A stretch of 28,586 bases of DNA from a virus (IMGVR_UViG_3300020042_005790:1-28586); one strand, 5' to 3'; positions 1 to 28,586 are shown, counted from the first letter of the stretch. Notes: generated by a model from the letters alone, not told the origin. Program-made: numbers and translations.

Positions 1-2
1 CA

Positions 3-413
3 GGGCCAGCATCAACCCAAACGAACACCCCAACCAATTTGGCAACCAACCAGGCTTTGCGCCTGATTGCGTCGGCCCAAGGTGTTAACTTGAATTCTGT
101 CGCCGACACCATCGCCCCCATTTTGGTGGCTGGTGACGTCAGCGTTCAAAGCATCATTGTTGCCAACGCAAGCGTTGACCTGACAACCGCGCAACTTGCT
201 GTTTACACCGGCCCAGGCGCCACCGGCACGGCTGTCAAGTCGGCCTACGCGTTGACCGGCAACAGCACCAGCGCCAAAGTTGTTGTGACTGCCGCTTCGT
301 CAACCGATTCGATTACAGGCACACCCTTGTATATTCGAAACACTACCGCCCAGGGCGCAGCGGCCACCGCCGATGTGTTCATTTACGGGTATGACCTGAC
401 GTTCTTGCCTTAA
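3..413 (+). CDS. Small Ala/Thr/Val-rich virion protein (5'-truncated; possible capsid decoration/cement protein)
   Basis: Frame is open from position 3 (GPASTQTNTPTNLATNQ...), so the listed TTG start at 39 is probably internal. Beta-rich composition, ends ADVFIYGYDLTFLP, followed by a terminator. Confidence 0.6.
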   Translation, partial: GPASTQTNTPTNLATNQALRLIASAQGVNLNSVADTIAPILVAGDVSVQSIIVANASVDLTTAQLAVYTGPGATGTAVKSAYALTGNSTSAKVVVTAASSTDSITGTPLYIRNTTAQGAAATADVFIYGYDLTFLP

Positions 414-434
414 TTGGGCATGAAATGGAAAGAG

Positions 435-462
435 GCCGCCCCCAAAAAGGGTGGCTTTTTTT
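435..462 (+). terminator. Rho-independent terminator
   Basis: Hairpin GCCGCCC-CCAAAAA-GGGTGGC followed by T7, directly after the stop at 413. Confidence 0.8.
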
Positions 463-507
463 CTATGGTAAGCACTATAATTTTGAAAACACGGGAAAGG
501 GTTAAAA

Positions 508-849
508 ATGGTAAATCTTGAAGCCATCCGGCCAAGCGGGCCAACTTATGCGCTTGATTTAACTTCATCGGCGTCAGCGGCTTTGCTGATTACGCCTTCG
601 ACCAACGATCAAACGAATTACGTGATTCTTTTGAACACCGGAAGCGATAAAGCGGCCGTCACGATGGCGCCCGAATCGGCCAACCTGGTGACGCCGACAA
701 TTGCCAGCACCGGCAATTCCGGTTCCTTCGTGTTACCTGGCGGCATGAATTTTCCCATTGTGATCGCAGCCCCCAAAGGCCCGTTCTACATTAAAGGGAT
801 TAGCAGCGGCACAAACACACTTTACATTACCCCCTGCCAAGCAGATTAA
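508..849 (+). CDS. Hypothetical virion protein (113 aa)
   Basis: ORF with AAAGGG RBS, beta-rich, collinear with the structural genes. Confidence 0.65.
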   Translation: MVNLEAIRPSGPTYALDLTSSASAALLITPSTNDQTNYVILLNTGSDKAAVTMAPESANLVTPTIASTGNSGSFVLPGGMNFPIVIAAPKGPFYIKGISSGTNTLYITPCQAD

Positions 850-858
850 GGGGGCGCC

Positions 859-3060
859 ATGTCGAACAGCACCGCTGTTACGAACACGACGAACATCAAA
901 CCGGTTCAGGGGCTTTTTCAACCTGAACCGACGTTTGATTTAATTTCGTTTGTTGGCCCCGCTGGCAGTTTGTTTTTTGCCCCAATCAATCCGATTCAAT
1001 CGGGTTTGACGATTACCGACAGCACAATTGATTCGTCCGTGATCGGTGGAACCGCGCCAGCAGCCGGTTATTTCACCAGCATTTACGCAACCACCGGCCA
1101 AGTGGCCACAACCCCTTCAGCCGACTTGGACATTGCCAACAAGGCTTACGTCGATTCCGTCGCCCAGGGCTTGGACGTGAAAGCGTCGTGCGTTTACGCA
1201 ACAACAAACAACATCACGCTGTCCGGCTTGGCTGTCCAGGCTGGTGGCGATTGGGCTGCCACGCTGACCGCGGGCGACCGCATCCTGGTTAAAAGCCAAA
1301 CCAACCAGGCGACCAACGGCATTTACGTGGCCAGCGCCAGCGGATGGACGCGCAGCGCCGACATGAACACCTGGGCCGAAGTGCCAAGCGCGTTCACGTT
1401 TATTGAATCAGGGACAACCCTAAGTGACACCGGTTGGGTTTGCACATCCAACCAGGGCGGCACAATTGACGTGACGCCAATCACCTGGTCGCAGTTTTCG
1501 GGCGCGGGTTCTTATTTGGCTGGCACAGGGTTAACCCTTACCGGCAACACATTCAGCATCACCAACACCGCGGTGACCGCGGCCGCATACGGTTCGGCTT
1601 CCCAGGTGGCCACGTTTACCGTGAACCCCCAAGGCCAATTGACTTTGGCGGCCAGCACCAGCATTGCAATTGCAGCAAGCCAAGTCACCAGCGGCACGAT
1701 TGACAGCGCCAGGTTGTCGGGCGCATATACCGGCATCACCGGTTTGGGAACTTTGCTTGACTTGACCGTGACCAACACAATCACCGGTTCAATTTCAGGC
1801 AACGCGGGAACGGCTACAACGGCCACCACGGCCACGAATTTGGGCGGTGGTGCATTGGGTTCGGTTCCATACCAAACGGCCGCTGGCGCCACTTCTTTCC
1901 TGGCTGTTGGGGCCAATGGCCAGGTGTTGACCTTGGCCGCCGGTGTTCCGACCTGGGCAACGCCTACGGTTGGCACGGTAACGTCGGTTGGCGGCACGGG
2001 TACGGTGTCCGGAATCAGTTTGTCCGGCACGGTTACCACCAGCGGCAATTTGACTTTGGGCGGCACGTTGGATTTGTCGGCGCCACCAGCAATTGGTGGA
2101 ACGACTGCAAACACAGTCAGAGGCACAACAATCACGGCCACAACAAAGTTTGTTGGCCCTTATTTTGACGCTGCCACAAGTGCTGGCGGTGCATTGCGTA
2201 ATTCAGGCGGCACGGCCCAATTGCAATGGGGCGCTGGCGGTGGTAATAATTTGACTTTGGATGTTTCCACAAACATCAACGGTGCAAACGCGCAAATTGA
2301 CATAAGCCCCACGGGAACCGGCCACGTTCACATGAAGCCAACAGGAACCGGTGCAATTGAAATTGCCCCAACCAGCCTTGGCACAATTAACAATATGTCG
2401 ATTGGTGCGACTACGGCATCAACAGGCAAATTCACCACGATTGATTTCAGCAGCACGTTGGCGGTGTCCGGTTCAACCGGCTCGGCTGGCCAGGTGTTGC
2501 AATCAAACGGCGCCAGCGCCCCGACCTGGGTGACGCCCACCGCTTACGCAACGGTAACCGACGACACAACCACAAACGGAACCAGGTATCCGTTGTTTGC
2601 GGATCATACAACCGGAAACCTGACCACTCAATATGTGTCGTCCACAAAATTTCAATTTAACCCGTCCACCGGCACATTGTCGGCCACGGTGTTCAGCGGA
2701 CCGGCTGCCAGCCTGACAAACGTTCCGGCTGGTCAATTGTCCGGCACGATTCCTTCGGGCGTCCTGGGCAATTCGACGGTTTATATTGGCACGACGGCCA
2801 TTGCGTTGAACCGCGGCAGCGCCAGCCAATCATTAACCGGTGTGAGCATTGACGGCAGCGCGGGAAGTGCAACAAACGCAACAAACGCAACAAATGTCGG
2901 CATCACGGACGACACTACCACGGCCGCGGAAATGTACCCAACCTGGGTGACGACCACCACGGGAAACTTGCCCGTAAAGGTGTCTTCGACTAAACTGAAA
3001 TTTAATCCATCAACAGGCGTTTTGACCATGACCGGTGGAACTGGCGGGGGCAACTTCTAA
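859..3060 (+). CDS. Long Gly/Thr-rich tail fibre-like protein (733 aa)
   Basis: ANKAYVD motif, GDRILVKSQTNQATNGIY..WTRSAD domain typical of phage fibres, repeated GT-rich segments, and two copies of DDTTT...YP...GNL...VSSTK.FNPSTG. Confidence 0.8.
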   Translation: MSNSTAVTNTTNIKPVQGLFQPEPTFDLISFVGPAGSLFFAPINPIQSGLTITDSTIDSSVIGGTAPAAGYFTSIYATTGQVATTPSADLDIANKAYVDSVAQGLDVKASCVYATTNNITLSGLAVQAGGDWAATLTAGDRILVKSQTNQATNGIYVASASGWTRSADMNTWAEVPSAFTFIESGTTLSDTGWVCTSNQGGTIDVTPITWSQFSGAGSYLAGTGLTLTGNTFSITNTAVTAAAYGSASQVATFTVNPQGQLTLAASTSIAIAASQVTSGTIDSARLSGAYTGITGLGTLLDLTVTNTITGSISGNAGTATTATTATNLGGGALGSVPYQTAAGATSFLAVGANGQVLTLAAGVPTWATPTVGTVTSVGGTGTVSGISLSGTVTTSGNLTLGGTLDLSAPPAIGGTTANTVRGTTITATTKFVGPYFDAATSAGGALRNSGGTAQLQWGAGGGNNLTLDVSTNINGANAQIDISPTGTGHVHMKPTGTGAIEIAPTSLGTINNMSIGATTASTGKFTTIDFSSTLAVSGSTGSAGQVLQSNGASAPTWVTPTAYATVTDDTTTNGTRYPLFADHTTGNLTTQYVSSTKFQFNPSTGTLSATVFSGPAASLTNVPAGQLSGTIPSGVLGNSTVYIGTTAIALNRGSASQSLTGVSIDGSAGSATNATNATNVGITDDTTTAAEMYPTWVTTTTGNLPVKVSSTKLKFNPSTGVLTMTGGTGGGNF
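2869..2895 (+). repeat. 9-bp tandem repeat GCAACAAAY x3 (ATN x3) in the fibre gene
   Basis: gcaacaaac gcaacaaac gcaacaaat read directly. Confidence 0.85.
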
Positions 3061-3386: not shown

Positions 3387-5303
3387 ATGGCGGTTAACTT
3401 ATCACCCGTTGGCGGCGTTGCTGCCCAATTTTTCACAAACGACGGCGTTCCCCTGGCCGGTGGTTTGATTTACACCTATGCGGCCGGAACCAACACCCCC
3501 GCGGCCAGTTACACCACCAGCGCGGGAACAATTGCCCATTCCAATCCAATCGTTTTGGATTCGGCTGGTCGCGTTCCTACCGGTGAAATTTGGTTGACAG
3601 ATGGCATTTCATACAAGTTTGTTTTAAAAGATTCCACCGGCGCATTGTTGGCCACTTACGACAACATTGTCGGCATCAATTCCAATTTTATCAATTACAC
3701 CGGCAGCCAGGAAATCCAAACGGCTACGGCTGGCCAAACCGTGTTTACGTTGACAACCATGCAATATCAACCTGGAACCGGCAGTTTGTCGGTGTTTGTT
3801 GATGGCGTAAACCAATACGGGCCTGGCGCCCAATATGCCTATGTTGAAACCAGCGGCACGGTGGTGACGTTTGTGTCCGGCCTTCATGTTGGTGCATCGG
3901 TAAAATTTACCACCACCGCCATCAATTCGGCATCGTATGGTGACGCATTTCAAATTTCTTATACGCCACCATTTGCGGGAAGCGTACCCACCAATGTCGG
4001 TGACAAATTGGCGCAAACTGTTAGTGTCAAAGATTTTGGTGCTGTTGGTGATGGCGTAACCGATGACACTGTGGCAATTCAAGCCGCTTTAGACGCAATT
4101 GCATCAAAAAGCGCAAACAGTATTGGTGGAACTGTATTCCTTCCATCGGGTCGATATTTGGTTACAGCCCCGCTTGGGATGTGGGTTGGCACAACAATTG
4201 AGGGCGAAACGTCGGGGCTTGTTGGTGTTGCGCCTAATTCAAATACGGGAACAACATTTGTTTTAAGCCCTTACCAAAGCAATGGCACAACGCCTTGGAC
4301 TACTTCAACATTAAATCCTGGCACAACAGTTTCAGGTCGAGTGTTGTTTTACTTAAAAGGAAGCGGTGGCGTAATTTCTTTGCGTAATTTTGGCGCAATA
4401 CCAAACAATGCTTTATCTGCAAACGGAATATTTTTGTACGCAGGAAATCAAACTGGTATTTATGTTGGTCAAGGAATTACGCAAGGATACTTTGACACTA
4501 TTAGGCCAACTGCGTTCAGTGTGTGTTTCAACACATCCAAGATGAATGACTGCAATTTTGTCAATTGCGGTATGGAATTCTGCCAAACTGTTTTTAATGT
4601 TATCAATGATTCCAATGGTTCGATTGGGCAGTTTTCGGACAATAGATTTGTCAACACGACATTTTTTGGCTACCTGAACGCATTTACGATGGGTGAAGGT
4701 CAATCTGCAAATTGTTCGTTTTCAGCGTGTTCATTTCTTGGTAGTGTTGGAATAAACACCAACGCATTTATAAACGCTGGAACTAATGCAACGTTAATTG
4801 AGTTTTGGACATTCAGCAGTTGTGTGTTTAACAACTCATCTGCACCAGGTGGAAACAAAAGTTTGATGCGAGTTTCATCCGGTAATCCAAGGATTGAACG
4901 CGTAACTTTTGCTGGCTGCACTTTTTTTGAGTGCGGAATTGATATCCAATATATAGCACCGTCTGTAACAATTTCTTATTTAGTTTTTTCAGGGTGTATA
5001 TTTTATGATTCTCCAACATTAATTGCATTTGAAGTTGATGTTTTGTCAATGGTTGGATGCACATTTATTTTTGATTCATACATTGCAATTTCAGGATTTA
5101 ACAATGGCGTAATAAGCGGGTGCAATTTTCTTGGCTTAAATTCGGCGGGGACTTACGATGTAAATATTACCGCTGCAATCAATACAAACTTTGTCATTAC
5201 TGGAAACGCATTCCGAAGCGGCAAAGGCGTTGGCATCAGTGGCGGGTCAACAAGTTACAAAGTGCTGTCTAATTTGAACCAGGCAGACGTTACCAATCCG
5301 TAA
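3387..5303 (+). CDS. Tailspike-like protein: virion-anchoring N-terminus plus pectate-lyase-3-like beta-helix
   Basis: N-terminal QFFTNDGVPLAGGLIYTYAAGT...NPIVLDSAGR anchor. VKDFGAVGDGVTDDTVAIQAA..GGTVFLPSGRY marks the start of a pectate_lyase_3 domain. F.GC.F repeats indicate a parallel beta-helix. Confidence 0.85.
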   Translation: MAVNLSPVGGVAAQFFTNDGVPLAGGLIYTYAAGTNTPAASYTTSAGTIAHSNPIVLDSAGRVPTGEIWLTDGISYKFVLKDSTGALLATYDNIVGINSNFINYTGSQEIQTATAGQTVFTLTTMQYQPGTGSLSVFVDGVNQYGPGAQYAYVETSGTVVTFVSGLHVGASVKFTTTAINSASYGDAFQISYTPPFAGSVPTNVGDKLAQTVSVKDFGAVGDGVTDDTVAIQAALDAIASKSANSIGGTVFLPSGRYLVTAPLGMWVGTTIEGETSGLVGVAPNSNTGTTFVLSPYQSNGTTPWTTSTLNPGTTVSGRVLFYLKGSGGVISLRNFGAIPNNALSANGIFLYAGNQTGIYVGQGITQGYFDTIRPTAFSVCFNTSKMNDCNFVNCGMEFCQTVFNVINDSNGSIGQFSDNRFVNTTFFGYLNAFTMGEGQSANCSFSACSFLGSVGINTNAFINAGTNATLIEFWTFSSCVFNNSSAPGGNKSLMRVSSGNPRIERVTFAGCTFFECGIDIQYIAPSVTISYLVFSGCIFYDSPTLIAFEVDVLSMVGCTFIFDSYIAISGFNNGVISGCNFLGLNSAGTYDVNITAAINTNFVITGNAFRSGKGVGISGGSTSYKVLSNLNQADVTNP

Positions 5304-5312
5304 GGCAAAAAC

Positions 5313-6485
5313 ATGGCACAAACTGGTTACACCCCGATCCTAATTTACAGCAGCAGCACGACCACAAACGCGCCCGCTGCCGGTAATCTGACCAACAGCA
5401 CGTTGGGGTCGGAACTTGCCATCAACATCACCGATGGCAAATTGTTTTACAAAGACAATGCCAACGCCATCCAAGTGATTGCTTGGAAGACAACGCCAAC
5501 CACCGCGGGCGGCACGGGATTGACTTCTTACACCGCGGGCGATTTGCTTTATTACGCAACCGGGACAACGTTGGCGAAATTGGCAATCGGCGCCAGCACC
5601 ACCGTGTTAACCAGCAGCGGCAGCGCCCCCCAATGGACTGCACAAAGCAGCCTGGCGGTTGGAACTGCAAGCAATTTGAAATCAAACGCCACTACCGGCG
5701 TGATGCAAATTGTTGGGCCAACCGCAGCGTCAACCCGCGTAATGACTATTCCCGACGCCAACTTTTTGGTGGCTAGGCTAGATGGCGCACAAACATTTAC
5801 TGCTGCACAAACTATTGAAGGCACAACACAAATTTTTACGGTGGGTTCTTCGGCTAAAAAATTGTATTTTTATCCCGATACATCGGGTGAGGCCATTACA
5901 ACAAAAACATTGCAAAATGGCGCTGGAATTTATTTTAATGACACTCTTGATTCGGTGCATTTGCTCACGGGCGGCGCTTATAGGTTGTCAGCCAATACCG
6001 CTGGTAATGTTACTGTTGATACGGGAAACCTAATTATCGGCACATCAGGCAAAGGCATTAACTTCACCGCCAATACCCCGCAAGCGGGTATGACAAGCCA
6101 GTTGCTAAATTGGTATGAAGAAGGAACTTGGACCCCCTCAGCTTCTTCCACTGTGGGGTCAATTACTACATACGCATCAGGCGGTACATATACAAGAGTG
6201 GGAAGGCAAGTAACTGTGACTGCTTATGTTGATTTAACCAATGTAGGCACTGCTGCGGGGTCTATGCTTATCAGCAATTTTCCATTTAAAAACGGCGGTG
6301 CGTCAGGTGCGGGGTATTTGCAACAAATGGGGGTAGCGAGAGAGACAGGCGTTACTGGTGCAACTTATGCTGTTTTGTTAGTGGGGAATTCAACAAATGG
6401 CTATATTTCGTCATTGACTGGTGGCGCAATCACATGGGTAAGTACCTATCAATACGCCTTGTCAATAACATATTACACGTCTTAA
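5313..6485 (+). CDS. Tail fibre protein (390 aa)
   Basis: N-terminal ELAINITDGKLFYKD motif (Mtd/hyaluronidase N-terminal-like). C-terminal YEEGTWTP...GTYTRVGRQVTV receptor-binding-type knob. Confidence 0.75.
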   Translation: MAQTGYTPILIYSSSTTTNAPAAGNLTNSTLGSELAINITDGKLFYKDNANAIQVIAWKTTPTTAGGTGLTSYTAGDLLYYATGTTLAKLAIGASTTVLTSSGSAPQWTAQSSLAVGTASNLKSNATTGVMQIVGPTAASTRVMTIPDANFLVARLDGAQTFTAAQTIEGTTQIFTVGSSAKKLYFYPDTSGEAITTKTLQNGAGIYFNDTLDSVHLLTGGAYRLSANTAGNVTVDTGNLIIGTSGKGINFTANTPQAGMTSQLLNWYEEGTWTPSASSTVGSITTYASGGTYTRVGRQVTVTAYVDLTNVGTAAGSMLISNFPFKNGGASGAGYLQQMGVARETGVTGATYAVLLVGNSTNGYISSLTGGAITWVSTYQYALSITYYTS

Positions 6486-6495
6486 GGAAATAAAA

Positions 6496-7959
6496 ATGTC
6501 TTTAACAAAAGCATCGTATTCAATGATAACTGGCGCACCCGCCAATGTGCTGGATTTTGGTGCGGTTGGTGACGGTACAACAGATGACACCGCCGCTATT
6601 CAAGCGGCATTAACCACGGGCCGTTCTGTTTATCTGCCTCAAAATACATACGCCATTTCTGCAACTTTGCGTTTAAATTCTGATGGTCAGATTTTTTTTG
6701 GCGATGGTGATGGAAATGCAAATGAACCAGCCCGATCTGTTTTAAAGTGGATTGGCGCTTCTAATGGAAAAATGTTTTCTATCAGTAATGGGACAACAGA
6801 AAATTGGCAAAATTGCACAGTTAGAAATATTTGGTTTAACGGCAATTCTTTGGCAAACATAGCTATTGAAGGATATGCAGCAGCCGTATCAGGCGGTGCA
6901 TGGAGGAATCGATATGAGTATCTTACAATTAGCGGATTAACAGGCGCTAACAGCACTGCTTTTGATCTTGGTTCGGGTTCTTTTCCTAATTTTGCCCATG
7001 ACGCTGAAATTAATAGTTGTTTTGTGATTGGTGCTGTTCGAGGCGCTATTGGCGCTGGCTCATTACAAAGATTTAATAACACTACATTTTCTTTATGTAC
7101 AAATGCGGTGGTGGGTTTAGTTGGTTCGGCTTGGAATTTTGTGGGTTGTGTTTTTAGTCAATCGGGTGCATACGATTTTAACGGTACAAATATTCAAGTT
7201 GCCAACTTTACAGGCTGCTGGTTTGAAGATAGCACAACAGGTATTTATCTAGCCACAACAGCACATACTTGTAATTTTGATGGTTGCTATTTGCAAACCA
7301 AATCTACAAACACAACACAACTGATGAACATGGGAAATGCCGCTGGCAATTTTTCCATTAAAGGTTGTTTTGTTCCCGTTTCTAGCGGTTCGTTTTTAAT
7401 TAAAAATGTGAATGGAAACTATGAATACGATGCTATGTCAAGCAACGTGGTTCTTGAGCCTGGCTATCGGTATCGTTCACAAGGTTTAGTTAGGTCAGAC
7501 AATGGTGCATTTGCGGCGGGTATAACTAGCGATCAAAATAACGCAACTGGTGATGGCACTGTTTTTTCATTAAACAGCAGTGCTTTTACTGAAGAATATG
7601 ATACGGGTGGATTTTTCAATGCTGCCACAGGTGTTTTTACTGCGCCATTGTTTGGATATTATCAATTTTCGGGTGCTATTGCACTTGGCGAAGTTGCAGC
7701 AGGGCATACATCGGCATATCTGTCTTTGGTCACAACTAGTGATGTTTATACTCTTGGCGCAATAAATCCTAGTGCTGTACGCACTGGCGGTGCTTTTCCA
7801 GATTATGTGTTTTTACAAGGCACGGTCACTGTATTAATGTCGCCGTCTGACACGGCATATCTTCAAATAACGGTGGCAGGTTCAACAAAAACTGTTGATG
7901 TTTTATCAGGAACTACCGCTGTTGATTGGCGCACTCGATTTGAAGGTCGAATGATTTAA
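6496..7959 (+). CDS. Second tailspike-like protein: pectate-lyase-3-like beta-helix plus C-terminal C1q-like domain
   Basis: NVLDFGAVGDGTTDDTAAIQAA..VYLPQNTY and F.GC.F repeats. C-terminal YDTGGFFNAATGVFTAPLFGYYQF...TRFEGRMI resembles C1q/TNF-like domains. Confidence 0.8.
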   Translation: MSLTKASYSMITGAPANVLDFGAVGDGTTDDTAAIQAALTTGRSVYLPQNTYAISATLRLNSDGQIFFGDGDGNANEPARSVLKWIGASNGKMFSISNGTTENWQNCTVRNIWFNGNSLANIAIEGYAAAVSGGAWRNRYEYLTISGLTGANSTAFDLGSGSFPNFAHDAEINSCFVIGAVRGAIGAGSLQRFNNTTFSLCTNAVVGLVGSAWNFVGCVFSQSGAYDFNGTNIQVANFTGCWFEDSTTGIYLATTAHTCNFDGCYLQTKSTNTTQLMNMGNAAGNFSIKGCFVPVSSGSFLIKNVNGNYEYDAMSSNVVLEPGYRYRSQGLVRSDNGAFAAGITSDQNNATGDGTVFSLNSSAFTEEYDTGGFFNAATGVFTAPLFGYYQFSGAIALGEVAAGHTSAYLSLVTTSDVYTLGAINPSAVRTGGAFPDYVFLQGTVTVLMSPSDTAYLQITVAGSTKTVDVLSGTTAVDWRTRFEGRMI

Positions 7960-7983
7960 TTTTAATTTTAAAAAAAGGTTTTT

Positions 7984-8241
7984 ATGTTTGAAAAACAAAC
8001 CGTTGTTGACCGCATTGAAGTACTGGCAGATCAAACTGTTGCTGTGCGATATGTGGTAACCGTTCTTGAAGATAGTCAGCCTTTTGCCGAACAAGTCAAA
8101 GGTAATTACTTTAAGCCAGGCGATGATTACAGCGCCGAGGATGCCAAAGTTCAAGCCATTTGCGCCGCGGTGCATACGCCTGAAGTAATTGCAGCCTATC
8201 AAGCGGCTTTAGAAGCCAGCAAACTAAAAATCGAGGAATAA
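7984..8241 (+). CDS. Small tail-fibre-associated protein (85 aa)
   Basis: [33 protein letters not shown] resembles small proteins that follow phage fibre genes. Confidence 0.65.
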
Positions 8242-8242: not shown

Positions 8243-9217
8243 ATGACCACGCCGTTTGACATTGTTACTCGCGCCATGAAGGACATTGGCGCGTTGGCCG
8301 CGGGTGAGGTTCCAACCGCTGACGAAGCCCAAGACGGCTACGATATGTTGAACGATATGTGCGCCCAATGGTCGAACGAAAACATGATGGTTTTTTATAA
8401 AACCGAAATCATTTTTCCGGTCGTTCAAAACCAAACGCAATACACCATCGGCCCAGGTGGCCAAGTGGGTTGCACATTCACCGGATCAATCAGCGGCACA
8501 ACGCTGACCATTCCGGCCAACGGCGTGACTTCAGGCGCCATCACCATTGGCCAAACATTGACGGGAACCGGCGTTGCAGCCGGAACCACAATTGTGAACT
8601 TCAACACCGGCGGCGGCGGCAACGTCAACGAAGCTGGAACGTACACCGTCAGCCAATCGCAAACGGTGGCCAGCACAACCATTCAGGGTTACTACGAACG
8701 CCCGCTGACGTTGGAATCGGCGTTTGTGCGCGTGACCACGACCAGCAATGGCGCCCCAATTTACGGCGGCGGCCTGGACTATCCCGTGGCCATTTTTGCC
8801 CTGGAACAGTACGAATCCATTGGCCTGAAGCAATTGAACGGCCCCTGGCCAAAAGGCGTTTATTACCAGGCAAGCGAAAACCTTGGCACGATTTACGTTT
8901 GGCCAAACCCCGCCCAAGGCGAAATGCACATTTTTGCCTATACGCAATTCCGCACGTTCACCGCGCAAACCAACGACATTGCGTTGCCGCCTGGTTACAT
9001 CAACGCATTGCGTTGGTGTTTGGCTGAACGGTTGCTGCCCATGTTTGGCAAGATGAACCAGGTTCAAATGGCCATGATAAATTCGCTGGCTGCCCAGGCA
9101 AAGGCGACAATCAAACGCACCAATATGCGGCCGCCGCAAGTGGCGCGTTATCCTGACACGCTGTTGATGGGCAAATCAAAAGATGCCGGTTTCATCATGG
9201 ATGGGGGATTTGCATAA
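8243..9217 (+). CDS. Head-to-tail adaptor (P22 gp4-like) with an inserted beta-domain
   Basis: [39 protein letters not shown]-terminus and [18 protein letters not shown]-terminus. Lies directly upstream of the gp10-like gene. Confidence 0.7.
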
Positions 9218-10683
9218 TGCCTGACTTCGGCTTCGTGGGCGCTTCTTACGAAGCCCCGTCAATCTACCAAGACGCGCAAGAGTGCATCAATTTTTACCCT
9301 GAAATTGACCCCACAAAGCAGCCTGGAAGCCGCGGCGTTGTTGCGTTGTACCCTACCCCTGGATTGGTTGAAGAACTGGCCTTGTGGCAAGCGGAGGTGC
9401 GTGGAATGCGGGCGTTGTCCGGCAGCCAATATTTGGTTGTTGTTGTGGGAAACCGCGTGTACAGCGTCACCACCTCTTTTGTGGCCACGCAAATCGGAAC
9501 GTTAACCACCAGCACCGGCCAGGTTGAAATGACCGATAACGTGACCACCAACAACGGTTTGACCGCTTACATTGTGGACGGCCCCAACCGCTACACCTGG
9601 GTGGCGGCCACCAACACGTTTGCCGCGCTGCCATCAACCGATGGATTGTGGCAAGGCGCCACGTCCACCGACACGGTGGATTCATACATCATTTACAACG
9701 AACCAAACACGCAAAATTGGGCGGCAACTGACCTTGGCCTTGCCGTGACCACAACGGGCAACTACGGCAGCAAAGACGGCGCCCCTGACAACCTGGTGGC
9801 TTTGATCGTTGACCACCGCCAGGTTTATTTGCTTGGCGAAGTCACCACCGAAGTTTGGGTGGACGTTGGAACCGTAATTTCCGGTTTGATTACTTTTCCG
9901 TTTCAGCGGGTAAGCGGCACGACCATGCAGCACGGCTGCGCGGCCAAATATTCCGTGGCCAGGTTTGGCGAATCGTTCATGTTTGTGAGCCGCGACACCC
10001 GCGGCCAGGCCATCATTGGCGCGGTGAATGGTTACACGTTTGTGCGAACATCCACCCACGCGGTTGAAAACAGCCTGGTTGGCGCCGACGTGTCCGACGC
10101 GTTTGCATATACCTACCAAATCGAAGGCCACGAAATGTATGTCGTGACGTTTCCTTCAATTGATTTGACATGGGTTTATGACCTGGCCACGCAACAATGG
10201 CACAAATGGCTTTCCTGGGACAACGTGGCCGGATACTACCGCCACCGGTCAAATTGCTATGCGTTTTTTGCTGGCAAAAACCTGGTGGGCGATTTTGAAA
10301 ACGGCAAGATTTACAGCCTGGACAACGCGGTTTACACCGACAACGGTTCAACGATTCGTCGTTTGCGCCGTGCGGTTCACTTAACCACAGATTTACAGCG
10401 CCAGTTTTTTGAGGAATTCCAAATCCAATTCCAACCTGGCGTGGGCCTTACAACCGGCCAAGGCGAAGACCCTCAAGCCATGTTGCGTTGGTCAAATGAC
10501 GGCGGTTCTACCTGGTCGAATGAGCATTGGATCACGATTGGCAAAATTGGCCGGTATCAAAACCGCGCCATTTGGCGACGCCTAGGCTGGTCGCGTGACC
10601 GCATTTTTGAGGTTGTAGTGTCCGATCCGGTCAAGGCCGTGATTGTTTCCGCAAACCTGAAAGCGTCGGTGGGGGATAACTAA
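9217..10683 (+). CDS. Tail hub / packaged-DNA stabilisation protein (P22 gp10-like)
   Basis: CINFYPE...LYPTPGL, TWVYDLATQQWH and PQAMLRWSNDGGSTWSNEHW..IGKIGRY.NRAIWRRLG..RDRIFEV motifs; 488 aa. Confidence 0.85.
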   Translation: MPDFGFVGASYEAPSIYQDAQECINFYPEIDPTKQPGSRGVVALYPTPGLVEELALWQAEVRGMRALSGSQYLVVVVGNRVYSVTTSFVATQIGTLTTSTGQVEMTDNVTTNNGLTAYIVDGPNRYTWVAATNTFAALPSTDGLWQGATSTDTVDSYIIYNEPNTQNWAATDLGLAVTTTGNYGSKDGAPDNLVALIVDHRQVYLLGEVTTEVWVDVGTVISGLITFPFQRVSGTTMQHGCAAKYSVARFGESFMFVSRDTRGQAIIGAVNGYTFVRTSTHAVENSLVGADVSDAFAYTYQIEGHEMYVVTFPSIDLTWVYDLATQQWHKWLSWDNVAGYYRHRSNCYAFFAGKNLVGDFENGKIYSLDNAVYTDNGSTIRRLRRAVHLTTDLQRQFFEEFQIQFQPGVGLTTGQGEDPQAMLRWSNDGGSTWSNEHWITIGKIGRYQNRAIWRRLGWSRDRIFEVVVSDPVKAVIVSANLKASVGDN

Positions 10684-18040: not shown

Positions 18041-18043
18041 TCC

Positions 18044-18559
18044 TTAAAGTTTGATTGCATTCAGATTGAAATTGTCGGCCATCACTTCGTCGTAATTGAA
18101 ATGGCGGCCAAAGCAATCCCTAAACGAAACGCATTCGTCCGACCAACCTTCGACAACATTTTTGTAAATGTATGCCTTTTTTGGAACGGTAATGCTTCCA
18201 ACGACAAAATGCAAGCCCTTGGCCGTCAGGCGCCAAAGCCCGTCGGATTTTTTGGTTTTGTCTTCCCTGGTTCCGGCTGATTCCACCAGCCCCCAATGTT
18301 GGGTTGTGGTGTAGGTTTTGCCGCGCAGCATCCAGCGCGGGGCCGTGCGGGGAATATCTATCCATCCATCTTCATCACAAGTGGCCCTGGAAAGCCACAA
18401 AAGCCCCAGGGCGCGGGTTTCGTTCATGCCCTGGGGGCTTACCTTGCCCCACTTCCCGCAACAAGGGCAATTGCCCCCGTCGCCTTCAATGGTGGCCCGC
18501 CAGTTGGTTTTTAATTGCGAAAGGTATTGGCCTTCGTCGCCAAAAAAATCCAATTGCAT
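18044..18559 (-). CDS. Hypothetical protein with CPCCG Zn ribbon and possible winged-helix C-terminus
   Basis: Start re-called at 18559 (AAGGGG RBS; MQLDFF...). HWGLVE...GLWRLTAKG looks like a wHTH wing. Confidence 0.6.
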   Translation of the reverse strand: MQLDFFGDEGQYLSQLKTNWRATIEGDGGNCPCCGKWGKVSPQGMNETRALGLLWLSRATCDEDGWIDIPRTAPRWMLRGKTYTTTQHWGLVESAGTREDKTKKSDGLWRLTAKGLHFVVGSITVPKKAYIYKNVVEGWSDECVSFRDCFGRHFNYDEVMADNFNLNAIKL

Positions 18560-18569
18560 GGCCAGCCCC

Positions 18570-18839
18570 TTAGAACGGAATGTCGTCGTGCATATCGTCA
18601 AACCCGCTGCCCTGGGGCGCCTGGCGGCGTTGCGGCTGTTCGTCGCGTTCGCGTGGTTCGTTGATGTATGCCCAACCGTCCCAACCGCCTTCCTTCAGCG
18701 GGATCACGTCAATTTTGAGCATTGGCCCGTTTTTGGTTTCAATGATTGAGCCGATACGTTGGTAACGGTTCTTTTGCTGCCCCTGGGCGTTGTTGTACGT
18801 GCCGGTGATTACGGTGATTTCGTTGATAAGTTTGGCCAT
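18570..18839 (-). CDS. SSB-like protein
   Basis: Short OB-like core (GTYNNAQGQQKNRYQRIG) and acidic C-terminal FDDMHDDIPF tail. Adjacent to the exonuclease and ERF genes. Confidence 0.7.
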   Translation of the reverse strand: MAKLINEITVITGTYNNAQGQQKNRYQRIGSIIETKNGPMLKIDVIPLKEGGWDGWAYINEPRERDEQPQRRQAPQGSGFDDMHDDIPF

Positions 18840-18842
18840 GAT

Positions 18843-19475
18843 TTATTCCCCAATGATTTTTTTCAGTTGATCGACCTTGACCGCGGTTTCGGCCAGGAAC
18901 TTGATGATTTCCGCTTCCATGTCGGCAATGAACACGTCATCACGCGGGACGCGTTTAATAAACAATTGAGCCTTGGCGGGCATTCGTGGATCAAACACAA
19001 CGTAATCGCACCAGGCACGGCCAGCACAAACCATTTGCATTTGCATTTGCGCGAAATACTTTTGCGGGATTGAACCGGTTAACAGCGTTTCGATCATGGT
19101 GGCCGTATTGGGCGCCTTGATTTCGACGCAGCCGTCATCACCAATCAGGCCGTCAGGTGACGCGCCAGCCATCGCAATGGTTGGATGGTTCACAAAGCCC
19201 ACTTCCTCAACCATGTTGCCGGTGGCCGCTTCATACGCCCCGCGGGCGAACGGTTCCTGGTCGGTTCCCCATTGCATGGCGCTGTTGGTGAACGATTCCT
19301 GGCGTGTGCCGGTGATTTGTTCGACCACCAGTTGCGCCATGTAGTTTTCACGCGTTGCGGAATAACCCGACTTTGTGCGGGCCATCACGTCGGCCACTTT
19401 GGACGCGGTGACTTTGCCCAGGCGGGCGGCAAACCATTCGTCGGTGCGTTGTTCAATTTCGTCAGACATTTTCAT
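18843..19475 (-). CDS. YqaJ / lambda-exonuclease family recombination nuclease
   Basis: EQRTDEWFAARLGKVTAS, AMQWGTDQEPFAR, GASPDGL, VEIKAP and YFAQMQMQM motifs. Confidence 0.92.
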   Translation of the reverse strand: MKMSDEIEQRTDEWFAARLGKVTASKVADVMARTKSGYSATRENYMAQLVVEQITGTRQESFTNSAMQWGTDQEPFARGAYEAATGNMVEEVGFVNHPTIAMAGASPDGLIGDDGCVEIKAPNTATMIETLLTGSIPQKYFAQMQMQMVCAGRAWCDYVVFDPRMPAKAQLFIKRVPRDDVFIADMEAEIIKFLAETAVKVDQLKKIIGE

Positions 19476-20091
19476 TTCCTTTGGTTGATAATTCTTTTTT
19501 GGCGCGGGCCACGCGTTCTTTTTTGGCTGCCATTACTTTGGTTTGAAGCGTCTGGTTGCCCTGGCAAGCGTCAAATGCTTCTTTAAACACTTTGGCCAAT
19601 TCTTCGCTGTTGGCGCTGGCTTGGATGGCCGCCAGGTGGTCGGTAATGTCAGGTACGGCAGCCACGGAATGCGTATGTGCATCGGCATCGTTGTCGGCTT
19701 CGGTTGGAATGCTGAACGCCTGGAATGCAGCGTATTTGTACGCGGCCGACATTGCTTTGTTGGTGGCTTTATCGCCGCTGTCCATTGCTTCGCCAAAGGT
19801 TTTGACGGTGTGTTTGGAACCATCTTCAGCAGACACAAAATCGAATTCGACTTCGACGGTAATGTAAAACAACGCACCGCCTTTTTGGCTTACGCGTTCG
19901 ACGCATTCACGCGCCAGCACACGGGGCAAAATGCACAAACCATGTTTGGCCAATAAAGGCGCAATGGTGTTGTAAACATCATCAATGCCGCGGAAGTTGT
20001 AACCGCTGCCTTGCATATTGCGACGGTCTTTGGTGATGCCGACCGTGGACAATTCAGCCTGGACGGCGTTGATTGCTTTATAAACTTTCAT
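19462..20091 (-). CDS. erf: ERF-family single-strand annealing protein
   Basis: YNFRGIDDVYN, GEAMDSGDKATNKAMSAAYKYA..F.IPT..DNDAD. Start re-called at 20091 (AAGGA RBS). Confidence 0.9.
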   Translation of the reverse strand: MKVYKAINAVQAELSTVGITKDRRNMQGSGYNFRGIDDVYNTIAPLLAKHGLCILPRVLARECVERVSQKGGALFYITVEVEFDFVSAEDGSKHTVKTFGEAMDSGDKATNKAMSAAYKYAAFQAFSIPTEADNDADAHTHSVAAVPDITDHLAAIQASANSEELAKVFKEAFDACQGNQTLQTKVMAAKKERVARAKKELSTKGNENV

Positions 20092-20102
20092 GGTGGTTTC
20101 CT

Positions 20103-20444
20103 TTACCATTTGGGGGCACAAGTAACGTCAATCACAACATCGGCGGTGTACCCGTTGACCTTGCGTTTGCCGTACATCAACACGGCACGAAGCCCGTTGG
20201 CCTGGCAATCGCCAATAGCCGACACGACTTCATTCCGCGACATTGGTTGGATACTTTTATCCAAAACCAAATCCTGGGCGCCGCCGGTTGTGGTTGTTGA
20301 ACAACCGGACAACCAGGCGACAACACCGACAGCAATTACCACCACAACCAGGCAATTCCAAACGCGTTGGTAAAGCGTTGGCTTTGGGTAGTAAGGGCCG
20401 TCAAGATCAATGCGAATCATTTTTTTCATTGCAGTAACTTTCAA
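20103..20444 (-). CDS. Predicted lipoprotein
   Basis: Hydrophobic LVVVVIAVGVVAW followed by lipobox LSGC. Two further Cys could form a disulfide. Confidence 0.65.
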   Translation of the reverse strand: MKVTAMKKMIRIDLDGPYYPKPTLYQRVWNCLVVVVIAVGVVAWLSGCSTTTTGGAQDLVLDKSIQPMSRNEVVSAIGDCQANGLRAVLMYGKRKVNGYTADVVIDVTCAPKW

Positions 20445-20551
20445 AATGGTGCGGGTGGCAAGTTGTCCCGACGTTGGTTTTGGTAATCGCGTTCTTGCTT
20501 ACGCGACCAGGGGATTGGCCCCCCTGGCGGTGGAAATGGCCAGTTAAACAT
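20441..20551 (-). CDS. Small Pro-rich protein (36 aa, MFNWPFPPPGG...PPAPF)
   Basis: Start overlaps the upstream gene's end and stop overlaps the downstream start; fills the operon gap. Confidence 0.5.
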   Translation of the reverse strand: MFNWPFPPPGGPIPWSRKQERDYQNQRRDNLPPAPF

Positions 20552-20750
20552 TGGCAATTTTTTTGGCGTAGTTGATGGCTTGGGCAAACATGGCCACGGG
20601 ATAAATGCGGGTGGCCACAACCATTTCAGCGTCGGTGTCCAACAGCGTGACGGCATAACCTTTTTTGACCTGGGTTACCAGGGAAGCAATGCCAAAATCA
20701 GGGTTGGTAAATGTTGCAATTTGGTTTGCGGTGGTGATGGTTGAATTCAT
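20544..20750 (-). CDS. Hypothetical early protein (68 aa)
   Basis: AAGGA RBS; first gene behind the promoter at 20791-20820. Confidence 0.7.
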   Translation of the reverse strand: MNSTITTANQIATFTNPDFGIASLVTQVKKGYAVTLLDTDAEMVVATRIYPVAMFAQAINYAKKIANV

Positions 20751-20790
20751 TTCAATTTCCTTTTTAAAAGACCCGTTAGGGCATGATGTG

Positions 20791-20820
20791 ATTTTAAGCC
20801 AACTTAACTGGCGGCGTCAA
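20791..20820 (-). promoter_or_regulatory. Leftward sigma70-like promoter with overlapping palindromic operator
   Basis: Minus strand TTGACG-18-TAAAAT. Palindrome TTAAG-CCAA-CTTAA at 20794-20807. Confidence 0.75.
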
Positions 20821-20824
20821 CACT

Positions 20825-20971
20825 TTATGCAAATATTTTTGCAAAACTTTCACGAACCGCGATGGCTTCACGCAATTCGGCCAGGCTGGCGCGTTCCAGG
20901 TAAATGCCGCTGACGGTGGCGGCATAGAACACGCGGCCGCCGCGGTGTACCCTGGTGATTCGGACTGTCAT
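20825..20971 (-). CDS. Small hypothetical protein (48 aa, MTVRITRVHRGGRVFYAAT...)
   Basis: Translated by hand (below the ORF-track cut-off); AAGGGG RBS. Confidence 0.6.
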   Translation of the reverse strand: MTVRITRVHRGGRVFYAATVSGIYLERASLAELREAIAVRESFAKIFA

Positions 20972-20981
20972 TTCGTTCCCC

Positions 20982-21080
20982 TTAAAAGATGGCCATTGCA
21001 AGCCAAATCAAAACATAGATGGCCGGTGCTGCCACCAGCGCCATCCCCAAAACTTCCCAATCTGTTGGTTCGCGGTTCAT
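20982..21080 (-). CDS. Small single-TM protein (32 aa, MNREPTDWEVLGMALVAAPAIYVLIWLAMAIF)
   Basis: Translated by hand; AAGGA RBS; about 22 hydrophobic residues in a row. Confidence 0.6.
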   Translation of the reverse strand: MNREPTDWEVLGMALVAAPAIYVLIWLAMAIF

Positions 21081-21090
21081 GGCTGGTTCC

Positions 21091-21351
21091 TTATGCGGCG
21101 CGGGCGCAAGCGGTGGCCCACAATGGGTTGTTTTCAAAAATCCGAACACGACCTTTTTCAAAATAATCTGTCATGGTGTCGGTGTTGTTTTCGTAAGGCG
21201 CTGCATCGCGGAAGATGCGACCCAGGGCGCCGGTGTAGTCTTTTGCGTAGATCGTCACGCAATCACGGCCGTCGATCAGTTGGCCGCGGCTATACCAAAC
21301 GCGGGCTTTTTCTGTTTCGTTGGCAACATAAAATTTCATCATTTTCAACAT
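21091..21351 (-). CDS. Hypothetical early protein (86 aa)
   Basis: AAGGA RBS; first gene behind the promoter at 21399-21427. No HTH or S24 peptidase motif recognised. Confidence 0.7.
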   Translation of the reverse strand: MLKMMKFYVANETEKARVWYSRGQLIDGRDCVTIYAKDYTGALGRIFRDAAPYENNTDTMTDYFEKGRVRIFENNPLWATACARAA

Positions 21352-21771: not shown

Positions 21772-22476
21772 ATGAAGATCAAAAATTGGTCGAAATTCCA
21801 ACATTTCAAAGACCGCAAACCGCCGTGGGTAAAACTGTATCGTGACATTCTTGACGACATTGAATGGCACGAATTGGACGCGACCGCCAGCAAAGTGTTA
21901 GTGATGTGTTGGCTTATCGCCAGCGAAGACGATGGCAATTTGCCAAACACAAAAACCCTGGCTTTTCGCCTTCGTATGTCAGAAAAGCAAACTTTGGAAT
22001 GCTTAAACAAGTTGTCTCATTGGCTGGAACGTGATGATATCAACGCGATATCAAGCGGATATCAGGATGATCTACTAGAGACAGAGAGAGAGACAGAGAC
22101 AGAGACAGAGACAAAGAGAGAGGGAAAGAAAACGCAGCGCGGGACGCGCTTGCCAACTGACTTCGTTTTGTCGGATGAATGGGTTTCTTTTTGTCGCCAA
22201 CACCGGCCGGAACTTGATCCACGGGAAACATTTGAAGGGTTCCGCGACTACTGGATTGCCCAACCTGGCCAAAAGGGCGTAAAAACCGATTGGACGGCCA
22301 CTTGGCGCAATTGGGTACGACGGCAGCAGCAAGCCAAAAAAACCGCGTCAGAAGCCCGTTTGGTGCAAATGGCAGCCCTTACCCGCGGCCTGGCAACACC
22401 AAAGCCAGCCCCGTTTTGGGCAAAACCTGAACAAACTGTGGAGGTGTCCGATGTGGAACGAAAACGACTTTTGTGA
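21772..22476 (+). CDS. Phage replication initiator (lambda O-analogous)
   Basis: IKNWSKFQHFKDRKPPWVKLYRDILDD N-terminus, central low-complexity ETERETET linker, C-terminal GTRLP.DF...FRDYW...KTDWTATWRNW (DnaT-like). Position after cro. Confidence 0.8.
   Translation: MKIKNWSKFQHFKDRKPPWVKLYRDILDDIEWHELDATASKVLVMCWLIASEDDGNLPNTKTLAFRLRMSEKQTLECLNKLSHWLERDDINAISSGYQDDLLETERETETETETKREGKKTQRGTRLPTDFVLSDEWVSFCRQHRPELDPRETFEGFRDYWIAQPGQKGVKTDWTATWRNWVRRQQQAKKTASEARLVQMAALTRGLATPKPAPFWAKPEQTVEVSDVERKRLL
22036..22122 (+). repeat. Putative replication origin: GATATCA x3 at 11-bp period, then a (GAGACA)n purine tract
   Basis: GATATCA starts at 22036, 22047 and 22058. GAGACA/GAGAGA hexamers span 22078-22122. 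Inside the initiator gene, as for lambdoid origins. Confidence 0.65.
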
Positions 22477-22840
22477 TGCCGACAGCGGTTTTGATTACGT
22501 GTTCAGCAAAATGAACGCAATTTATGGCGCCACGTTTGCCAACCATTGGCGTGATGTTGACCCCAATTTGGTTCGCCAAGTGTGGATTGACGAATGCGGC
22601 CGCGGCCTGACGTACCGGCCAAAAATGGATTACGCATTGCAGCACATGAACCCCGACCGGCCACCTTCGGCCCTGGCGTTTAAAAAACTGTTGATTGATG
22701 GCCCGCGCATTCCTGATAAACCCGAAACGCTGATAACCAAACAGCCGACGCTGCACGAACAAATTGAAACGCAGCGGAAAAAAGAAGAAGCCTTGGCCAA
22801 GATGCGCGAATTAACTAAACATTTGAGGATGCCGAAATGA
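22451..22840 (+). CDS. Putative replication partner (helicase-loader / P position)
   Basis: GGAGG RBS; overlaps the initiator's end. YGATFANHW...W...RPPSALAFKKL resembles loader-type proteins. Confidence 0.55.
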   Translation: MWNENDFCDADSGFDYVFSKMNAIYGATFANHWRDVDPNLVRQVWIDECGRGLTYRPKMDYALQHMNPDRPPSALAFKKLLIDGPRIPDKPETLITKQPTLHEQIETQRKKEEALAKMRELTKHLRMPK

Positions 22841-23178
22841 CAAAAGATAAAGCATTGGAATTGGCGCTTGAGGCGTTGGAGTGCGCCAACTCACCAAATG
22901 GTGATTATGAAGATGAAATCACCGCCATCAAAGAAGCCTTGGCACAGCCACCATTAACAGAAAACGGAATGTATCGACTTGGTTATCACAACGGTTACGG
23001 GTTTGGTGAAGCATATGGAAAAGCCAACGCACCACAGCGCACATGGGTTGGGCTGACGAATGAGGAGATCAAAGCATTTGATGCTTGGCACGACAACAGA
23101 GAGGAGGAAATTGGTTGGTGTAACCCATCGGAAATCGTGGCCTACATTGAAGCCAAACTTAAGGAGAAGAATACATGA
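22837..23178 (+). CDS. Hypothetical mosaic protein (113 aa)
   Basis: ATGA overlaps at both ends. EALELALEAL...AIKEALAQP...RTWVGLT.EE...IEAKLKEKNT. Confidence 0.7.
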   Translation: MTKDKALELALEALECANSPNGDYEDEITAIKEALAQPPLTENGMYRLGYHNGYGFGEAYGKANAPQRTWVGLTNEEIKAFDAWHDNREEEIGWCNPSEIVAYIEAKLKEKNT

Positions 23179-26647: not shown

Positions 26648-26873
26648 ACCAACGTGCCTTACGTGCGAATTTTTCCGCAACGCCCAGGTGATGGGAAGTT
26701 GCCGACGCTATCCAGCGCCGCAAAACAAACACCAAAACGATTGGTGCGGTGAATACCAAATAAAAATGATGGCGCTGCCGGTGTACGACATTATGACGGA
26801 CACCACCACAATGCCCCCCGAACGTAAAAAGCCTGGAAGGAAACCGAAAAATGGTGATAACACCGCTGCATGA
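26640..26873 (+). CDS. Cys-rich small protein with basic tail
   Basis: CLTCEFF...CRRYP...WCGEY (4 Cys) and RKKPGRKPK (AT-hook-like). Confidence 0.65.
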   Translation: MAEPTCLTCEFFRNAQVMGSCRRYPAPQNKHQNDWCGEYQIKMMALPVYDIMTDTTTMPPERKKPGRKPKNGDNTAA

Positions 26874-27559: not shown

Positions 27560-27590
27560 ACCCTTTTGGAATATATAAAGGAAATTGAAA

Positions 27591-28193
27591 ATGGCTACTA
27601 TTAACACCAAAGCAACCGGCGTCGCGTATGCCGACCCCGCGTTTGATAGCGTTCAAGTCGGTTCATCCGGCGTACCTATTGCAATCACTTCGGCTGGCGT
27701 CCTAAACGGCGCCTATGCCACCACCAGCGCAGCAAGTGGCGACACACGACTGTCCTACAACAAACTGACGTTCACCAGCACCGGTTCCGGTGAAGTTGTG
27801 CGCGGTTTTGCTGTTGTGACCGGTGCTGGCGCTGCGGCTGCTGGCACGATCAACGGCGCCCACTTCAGCACGTCAGTCAATACTGGCGGCACTATCAGCG
27901 GGGCGGCCAACGCCATTCGTGCAACGATTGGTGGTTCATCTACCAATCCTGGTGGCACTTTGGCAGCATTACAACTTGATTCTGATTTTGCAACGGGCGG
28001 CACTTGGTCAAACGCATCATTCATGCGTGTAACCAACTCAGGCACGGGCGAGGTTGGAAACTTTGCTTTGATGCCCGCGGTCAGCGCAACTGGCGTATTT
28101 CGCGCCAAGGTCGGTTCACCCGTTGTTACCCATACCATTCCCGTGGTCAGCGGCGGCACGACCTACTACATCATGGTTTCGACGGTTGCCTAA
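27591..28193 (+). CDS. Gly/Ala/Thr-rich putative structural protein (200 aa)
   Basis: AAGGA RBS; beta-rich composition; ends GTTYYIMV like short fibres. Confidence 0.6.
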   Translation: MATINTKATGVAYADPAFDSVQVGSSGVPIAITSAGVLNGAYATTSAASGDTRLSYNKLTFTSTGSGEVVRGFAVVTGAGAAAAGTINGAHFSTSVNTGGTISGAANAIRATIGGSSTNPGGTLAALQLDSDFATGGTWSNASFMRVTNSGTGEVGNFALMPAVSATGVFRAKVGSPVVTHTIPVVSGGTTYYIMVSTVA

Positions 28194-28196
28194 ACT

Positions 28197-28376
28197 ATGT
28201 TTAAGCATCCCGATCCGGAAGTGCAATTCCTGGTTGAAATGCTTGAAGGTCAACGGGATCAGGCGGTGGCCCAGGCTGCCGCCTTGTTCCGCGCCAATAA
28301 GGAATTGGAAGCAAAACTAAACGAACAAGATGAACAGGATTGCGGGGAAACCCTAAAGCCTGGCTGCAACGACTAA
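28197..28376 (+). CDS. Small coiled-coil protein (59 aa)
   Basis: Translated by hand (MFKHPDPEVQFLVEMLEGQRD...KELEAKLNE...); fills the gap between neighbours. Confidence 0.6.
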   Translation: MFKHPDPEVQFLVEMLEGQRDQAVAQAAALFRANKELEAKLNEQDEQDCGETLKPGCND

Positions 28377-28384
28377 GGAAAACC

Positions 28385-28570
28385 ATGACGATTGAACAAA
28401 TGAAAGCCCGCGTAGCCGAACTGCAACAAACAGCCAAACAGCACGAAGCCGTTTTGCTGCAAATCAGCGGCGCCATTCAGGAATACACAATGGTTATTGC
28501 CCAAGAAGAATCCAAAGCCAAGGAAGAACAAAATGCCCCTAATCAGGTCGATGACGCCCAAAGCGTTTAA
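28385..28570 (+). CDS. Small coiled-coil protein (61 aa)
   Basis: AAGGA RBS; MTIEQMKARVAELQQ...LQISGAIQE. Confidence 0.6.
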   Translation: MTIEQMKARVAELQQTAKQHEAVLLQISGAIQEYTMVIAQEESKAKEEQNAPNQVDDAQSV

Positions 28571-28586
28571 AGAAAATATCAAAACC
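28533..28586 (+). CDS. Start of a small basic protein (3'-truncated)
   Basis: AAGGA RBS; MPLIRSMTPKAFKENIKT is open to the window end. Confidence 0.5.
   Translation, partial: MPLIRSMTPKAFKENIKT

Follow-up and report, generated by a model that had tools for sequence, protein, structure and literature searches.

Introduction

Type III restriction enzymes require recognition sites in inverted orientation, and phage T7 escapes EcoP15I with all 36 of its sites in one orientation (PMC3874151). MANTIS (Gao_RL), as described in the available text of its preprint (bioRxiv 10.64898/2026.09.23.753747), combines hemimethylation with a graded preference for inverted sites and with one-strand depletion in virulent phages; the word GAG is absent from the preprint's main text. 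A one-strand Type III mark, CACAG, is described for Burkholderia in the accessible part of PMC7364216. Nothing relevant to orientation in BREX is found in the accessible part of PMC11842806, and a trinucleotide motif considered for the Dpd system, which the accessible part of PMC10164549 does not confirm, was left unused. The phage considered here has lost the trinucleotide GAG mainly from one genome strand, along with many words of the restriction type. The window, by which we mean the whole stretch of DNA analyzed (28,586 nt; IMGVR_UViG_3300020042_005790:1-28586), is a partial genome of a P22-like podovirus.

Results

The window encodes tail spikes, head closure and ejection proteins, a holin and an endolysin, and also a reverse-strand Erf/YqaJ operon, a Cro-like gene, a replication initiator, NinB and nucleases (Table 1). 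Relatives are 32-34 kb long, and the complete ones, of 33-34 kb, contain the terminase, portal and coat genes; in aligned parts, identity to the window is 84-88% for three relatives (G001-G003) and about 70% for the more distant G004. Because no integrase or DNA methyltransferase family was matched in 47 ORFs of the window, 19 extra ORFs of relatives and 60 of the 61 ORFs of the complete relative G003, the phage would appear to be lytic and without self-methylation. Spring water is the source of its nearest named relatives; that the host is a freshwater proteobacterium is a guess.

The Cro-like regulator lies at 21508-21666, at a divergent promoter region, and the scans gave no CI-like repressor or integrase match. 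Ahead of the packaging genes are a GroES-like co-chaperonin gene (26851-27111) and a DUF5856/starvation-inducible regulator-like gene (25056-25415). A zeta-toxin-like P-loop ORF at 25609-26559 (Pfam E 7e-13) occurs in 33 viral loci, each of which has an excess of GAG over CTC on its top strand; it had no solved-structure match and is probably a clade marker. Among the relatives, a reverse-operon gene of G003 (L088:13557-13943) carries an RNA polymerase alpha C-terminal-like domain, and the structural region of G004 holds an MptE-like gene (L090:13985-14776) and a GNAT acetyltransferase gene (L091:7927-8331).

Table 1. Features of the window that bear on word avoidance
Feature	Position	Strand	Remarks
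Window phage genome with word avoidance	1..28586	.	86 GAG and 23 CTC on the + strand
Tail fiber-like gene	859..3060	+	2 GAG, 2 CTC
Variable tail spike and fiber module	3387..8241	+	Cluster of leftover avoided words
AGCT site 1 of 3	6140..6143	.	
AGCT site 2 of 3	6861..6864	.	
Sole AGTTC in the window	8148..8152	+	The single bottom-strand GAACT (vs 29 top-strand)
AGCT site 3 of 3	8632..8635	.	
Head closure gene, P22 gp10-like	9217..10683	+	Query for collecting relatives
Gene nearly free of both words	12136..13797	+	1 GAG, 1 CTC
Reverse-strand operon: Erf-like and YqaJ-like recombination genes, small ORFs	17819..21351	-	1 of 56 Glu codons GAG
Replication initiator-like gene, putative origin region	21772..22476	+	Polarity unflipped across the gene
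Tandem repeat (6-bp unit) within the initiator gene	22077..22122	+	11 directly oriented GAG, every one on the tolerated strand
GAG-rich accessory ORF	22837..23178	+	8 GAG; 7 of 16 Glu codons GAG

GAG and CTC together number 109 in the window, against 359.5 expected under a Markov model (O/E 0.30). The deficit had been reported by a first-pass annotation from hand tallies, and these are exact by count, both for the two forward genes at 859-3060 and 12136-13797 and for the reverse genes at 18044-20121 (3 GAG and 1 CTC, all four in TGAG/CTCA context). The same annotation was right about the rarity of AGCT, which has 3 sites where the Markov model expects about 57, but it had listed two and missed the one at 6861. 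Ribosome-binding sites are mostly of the AAGG type, as it had remarked, with AAGG upstream of 22 of 43 starts and GGAG upstream of 2. Its claim that the depletion goes beyond codon bias also survives: in 300 synonymous shuffles, the observed and expected off-frame counts were 29 and 110 for GAG, 20 and 160 for CTC, and 3 and 68 for AGCT. In frame, 49 of the 392 Glu codons are GAG and 5 of the 623 Leu codons are CTC; even with codon usage and junction dinucleotides left free, a maximum-entropy model required forces of 0.34 and 0.16. The signature is restricted to one phage group, since 9 of 80 head-closure loci had a zero-order O/E of 0.07-0.10 while the other 71 lay at 0.22-0.72; dozens more members of the group were recovered in two further scans.

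The loss had been taken to be strand-symmetric, and this did not hold. The excess of GAG over CTC on the + strand of the window flips relative to the coding strand in the reverse genes, where GAG serves for 1 of 56 Glu codons as against 48 of 336 in forward genes (p 0.007). Over 7 related records, Glu GAG stands at 307 of 2451 in forward and 9 of 330 in reverse genes and Leu CTC shows the opposite trend (32 of 3788 forward, 20 of 338 reverse), with the caution that these records share ancestry, so that pooled p-values treat them as more independent than they are. Usage of Lys AAG and Gln CAG is alike in forward and reverse genes, and in 18 non-purging relatives Glu GAG is equal by gene direction (0.38 vs 0.36). 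The + strand excess of GAG over CTC is 3.4- to 7.4-fold in the relatives; the other 71 loci have a median of 1.19. GAG loss tracks the genome strand, not the coding strand, which does not fit an mRNA-level toxin target (RNase or CmdT-like).

Polarity recurs in three related sub-groups. With genes made non-redundant at 90%, and with 172 of 1795 called genes removed as unsupported, non-ATG or antisense shadows, bottom-strand off-frame GAG stood at 112 of 930 expected in the core group, at 13 of 174 and 11 of 114 in two sub-groups that tolerate AGCT, and at 104 of 356 in a distant sub-group; the corresponding top-strand values were 208 of 618, 75 of 146, 33 of 80 and 186 of 277. The tandem repeat inside the initiator gene forms the one dense GAG cluster of the window, and its pattern was matched in 3 of the 13 stretches checked. 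The accessory ORF at 22837-23178 is likely a recent acquisition that has yet to be purged.

The bases around GAG matter. Ordered by rising G/C count in the four nearest flanks, bottom-strand GAG in conserved genes runs, observed over expected, 19/28, 25/131, 14/258, 1/210 and 2/86, and top-strand GAG 8/10, 38/66, 62/161, 32/168 and 8/73. The motif first proposed, (A/C/G)GAG, does not describe this pattern: AGAG and TGAG are tolerated to about the same degree, and what counts is G or C within 2-3 bases on either side. On the bottom strand the flank effect lies mainly at -2 to +3. The top-strand profile is discrete, with GGAGC (2/76) and GAGCG (3/85) near zero and GAGCC (37/61) near normal, although bottom-strand GAGCC is 0/97; the ratio of top to bottom is not constant across contexts. 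Because discrete zeros stand beside near-normal words on the top strand, the data read as a two-strand layer together with a broad one-strand layer. Because GAG flanked by A/T only is largely tolerated in the window group (the survivors are 37 distinct sites), the target there seems to be a set of 4-6 bp sites built on a GAG core and not the bare trinucleotide. A context-free trinucleotide target was rejected for the window group on this unequal loss over flanks; equality is nearly reached in two cultured phages, PA73 and RcTitan. Type I bipartite sites with a GAG half-site were also rejected, on the position of the flank effect, on a gapped scan that gave only weak GAG hits and on the presence of polarity; GAG half-sites do exist (table in PMC12707154, as far as that source was accessible).

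These contexts bear on an alternative that we consider unlikely, though it is the foremost of the rivals: one undescribed and widespread proteobacterial defense, or family of defenses, that reads a 3-4 bp GAG core, preferably between G/C flanks, places its mark on a single strand of the host DNA and restricts in graded fashion, best at inverted sites, in the manner of MANTIS. A single reader would fit the bottom strand, where each of the 16 xGAGy contexts is depleted, with a smooth dependence on flank G/C count, and it would fit the persistence of polar loss in sub-groups where AGCT or bottom-strand GAACT is tolerated; MANTIS, within the available text on it, offers a precedent for graded, strand-biased restriction. 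The near-normal frequency of A/T-flanked GAG in the window group speaks against it, as do the discrete top-strand profile and the inconstant ratio between strands, which fit a mixture of sites. No candidate enzyme was found.

GAG is one of many words lost. AGCT, CCSGG, GGWCC, GCAGG, CCAGA, GGYRCC, GGCGGA, GACATC, GCACGC, GAANNNNTTC, 21 further palindromic 6-mers and gapped palindromes are lost on both strands, and GAACT, GGACT, CACAG, AGACG, AAGCGT and GAGCC on the bottom strand only, as is CGAAG in one sub-group. By strand counts in the window, almost no inverted pair is left for GGACT (11:0), GAACT (29:1; 40:1 for the two together, GRACT) and CAGAG (6:0), but such pairs persist for bare GAG (86:23), CACAG (11:5) and CAGCAG (15:4), and the leftovers of these three lie mainly in the spike module. 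In the window group at least 7 words are polar together, CAGCAG, AGACC and CACAG among them. No GAG-free 4-mer is polar, which again is what a single reader of GAG would give.

The division between the two sets follows the types of known enzymes. Among the matches listed in additional file 4 of PMC6286503 (for Type III rows, the best 170 of 173), GAACT, GGACT, CACAG, CGAAG, AGACC, CAGCAG and CGCAG are Type III sites, and CCAGA, GGCGGA and GAANNNNTTC are Type II sites; GAACT, GGACT, CACAG and CGAAG had been found de novo as one-strand words. Palindromic and asymmetric Type II sites are thus lost on both strands, the mark of Type II avoidance, and asymmetric sites are retained on one genome strand and lost on the other whatever the gene direction, the mark of Type III or inverted-site restriction. 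Polarity of 3-fold or more is seen in 5 of 21 listed Type III 5-mers without GAG and in 3 of 320 background 5-mers (p 3e-5); three of the five words were already known when the test was made, and the 21 are those that entered out of 24 non-degenerate non-GAG 5-mers among the matches listed. A rank test over all 21 was not significant (p 0.07). AGACG and GAGCC (one-strand) and GCAGG, GACATC and GCACGC (two-strand) have no entry in file 4 when exact entries are compared, and the one-sided AAGCGT is absent among the Type III rows listed there; these six are candidate unlisted specificities. In sister phages of mostly 43-51% GC (L010-L080), the avoidance set is a different one, with CCGG, GGCC and GGWCC near zero in many, and the GAG deficit is milder, which suggests that they have other hosts.

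How far listed sites account for GAG itself can be judged in part. By hand count among the matches listed, GAG occurs within 15 of 84 distinct Type III sites, and the entries include CGAG, GGAG, TGAG, CAGAG, CCGAG, GAGAC, GAGAG, CGAGG and GGAGG. GAG contexts covered by the listed 5- and 6-mers together with AGCT and GAGTC stand at 22/497 and uncovered contexts at 90/418; after the addition of three listed 4-mers the uncovered contexts still stand at 19/53, most of the coverage then coming from those 4-mers, which are listed for unrelated hosts. File 4, among its matches listed, has no entry for a bare GAG site, which weighs against a single reader of the core. CAG weighs the other way: it lies within 21 of the 84 listed sites by the same hand count and is nonetheless not purged wholesale (off-frame force 1.39 and 1.03), so that adding up sites in general would not pick out GAG.

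The polarity also raises the possibility of a toxin acting on single strands, a DarT-like ADP-ribosyltransferase or similar, that attacks CTC on the strand exposed in unidirectional or rolling-circle replication. A loss confined to one strand and unflipped across the initiator gene would fit rolling-circle exposure. Known DarT targets are T-flanked (TNTC, TYTN), whereas TCTC is among the less purged contexts here (bottom-strand GAGA 8/60, GAGC 6/276), and the listed Type III words have the same polarity as GAG. We regard such a toxin as quite improbable, and the DNA-modifying toxin named among the first-pass options is disfavored.

Whether a mutational process could produce the loss can be addressed at wobble positions. 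For CTC on the top strand, the first C stands at 1.1 vs 16.4%, the T at 2.1 vs 18.1% and the last C at 1.5 vs 17.0%, with no single sink; a deaminase-type signature, in which only C positions are lost with T as the sink, was rejected since all three positions are purged. Leftover avoided words cluster, 21 of 34 lying in 3387-8300 (17% of the window), the spike module, and 9 of the 23 + strand CTC lie in 3387-7959. Because codon nulls were survived, each base of CTC is purged at wobble positions and leftovers cluster in the variable spike module, GAG loss is selection, not mutation or host bias.

The contrary view, that the loss reflects mutational bias (for example C-to-T deamination in CTC), host codon preference or a bias common to the host chromosome, draws on the low AG and GA dinucleotides genome-wide in the window, on a milder GAG deficit over the phage family (force about 0.5) and on milder deficits in some bacteria (Markov O/E down to 0.59). 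Against it stand the absence of a single sink, the survival of the loss under free codon and junction-dinucleotide terms, and bacterial stretches used as proxies, not the phage's host: of 60 fetched, 49 were analyzed (10 were too short and 1 was left out), and zero-order GAG O/E ran from 0.50 to 1.03, the lowest thus 0.50 vs 0.12, while the three best codon matches, likewise proxies (G475, G435 and G460), had a Markov O/E of 0.95-1.06. We consider this view largely refuted and give it very little credence. The first-pass proposal of selection by a host DNA-targeting defense accordingly stands on the codon nulls, the three word positions, the restriction to one group and the absence of the signature in 49 bacterial stretches; the symmetric picture that went with it does not. 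Least probable of all is that the phage avoids the target of a nuclease or modifying enzyme of its own. It does encode HNH-like and VRR-like nucleases, but 109 sites are left, the loss is polar, the scans found no modification gene, and dozens of other restriction-type words are lost too.

Searches for the host were uninformative. By head-closure protein, 3 GTDB contigs matched, and these resemble binned phage contigs; by DNA, 400 class-level, 396 family-level and 8 genus-level genomes gave short or repeat matches only, besides the phage-like contigs of G008 itself; by GroES-like protein, nothing was found in 301 genomes at E 1e-12; and the endolysin homologues had no organism names attached. 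ResIII-family matches were discarded as a host clue, being present in 5 of 5 genomes tested and also in 14 of 14 controls.

Cultured phages also bear on whether GAG is a word apart. Off-frame GAG/CTC is reduced to 9/321 in PA73 (Septimatrevirus) and to 4/366 in RcTitan (Titanvirus), on both strands and with A/T flanks at 0/12 and 1/11, respectively; many palindromes are purged in these two phages as well. In the E. coli phage Shy (Lokivirus), GAG is purged about tenfold (force 0.09/0.06). These are 3 of 8 cultured phages tested, of which two were not a random choice, and the three are mutually related; the purge does not go this far in Serbin, Acinetobacter phage 53, T7, PBR31 or P26218. Since CAG is unpurged and these three phages are purged of GAG, GAG is special across hosts and a dedicated reader may exist; unrelated lytic siphoviruses of three other host genera purging the same word is what such a reader would predict. 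Shy (L292), which would serve as a cultured model for the GAG-purge question, has 20 GAG and 45 CTC on the + strand, a polarity opposite relative to the structural genes that matches CAGCAG (0:12), and CACAG is absent on both of its strands. As a control, CAGCAG in T7 counts 0:36 by strand, as published. Raw T7 strand counts (L250), not codon-corrected, are 23:0 for CAACAG (a MANTIS-type site), 36:8 for GGTAAG and 15:72 for CAGAG.

Discussion

What has to be explained was observed directly: GAG is lost on one strand, to an extent that depends on G/C flanks, listed Type III sites are lost with the same polarity, and listed Type II sites are lost from both strands. Because the one-strand words match listed Type III sites and the two-strand losses match listed Type II sites, we favor, with some reserve, restriction-site avoidance dominated by hemimethylating, inverted-site (Type III-like) enzymes, with a one-strand layer that converges on GAG. 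The hosts would carry several hemimethylating systems of the Type III kind, with sites of 4-6 bp that have a GAG core in common, and these systems would cleave only at inverted pairs. A lytic phage without a methyltransferase of its own may then drop Type II sites from both strands and align Type III sites head to tail, as T7 does for EcoP15I, and overlapping sites (CGAG, GGAG, CAGAG, CCGAG, GAGAC, GAGAG, CGAGG, GGAGG, GAGCC) could sum to a deficit at the trinucleotide level. GAG and CTC are likely cheap to remove, because no protein sequence demands them and the preferred Glu codon is GAA. An undescribed system, which the first-pass annotation had thought possible, is unnecessary for the window data, and its existence seems to us doubtful.

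The class of mechanism is already known; the literature searched showed no example of its trinucleotide-level scale or of GAG recurring in this way. No paper on GAG/CTC purging in phages turned up there, with the proviso that coverage was incomplete and short terms are noisy, so that this is not proof of absence. The one-strand avoidance is on a scale not found in the accessible part of a published survey (PMC6286503). Strand-resolved word counts in an uncultured phage group can read out the restriction sites of its hosts and the likely type of system, including candidate unlisted ones. Whether many enzymes have a common GAG core or one defense reads GAG is testable in the cultured phages Shy, PA73 and RcTitan. 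If the latter is true, few known self/non-self systems would read so short a site, and pressure from this reader would lie behind the altered Glu and Leu codons and ribosome-binding sites of unrelated lytic phages from at least four host groups.

From the perspective of known systems, the window group resembles the Type II avoidance of virulent phages in PMC6286503, as far as that source was accessible, in that 21 palindromic 6-mers, AGCT, CCSGG, GGWCC, CCAGA, GGCGGA and gapped palindromes are nearly gone on both strands; the same survey, in its accessible text, differs in reporting Type III avoidance as rare and without systematic strand asymmetry, and GAG is not mentioned in that main text. 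MANTIS and the window group have one-strand site depletion in common, but the sites given for MANTIS in the available text are 6 bp long (CAACAC, CAACAG) and are not clearly polar in the window (21:11 and 22:16), and avoidance of this BREX-related type 2 system was rejected in view of the lack of one-strand loss. PA73, RcTitan and Shy are likewise purged of GAG in all frames, but they are siphoviruses of another phage group, and their purge is deeper (1-9% of expectation) and extends to both strands. T7 facing EcoP15I is alike in retaining asymmetric sites on one genome strand only, and CAGCAG, AGACC and CACAG are polar in the window too; it differs in that T7 has no GAG deficit (force 1.15/1.19), whereas in the window group polarity takes in at least 7 words and reaches down to a trinucleotide.
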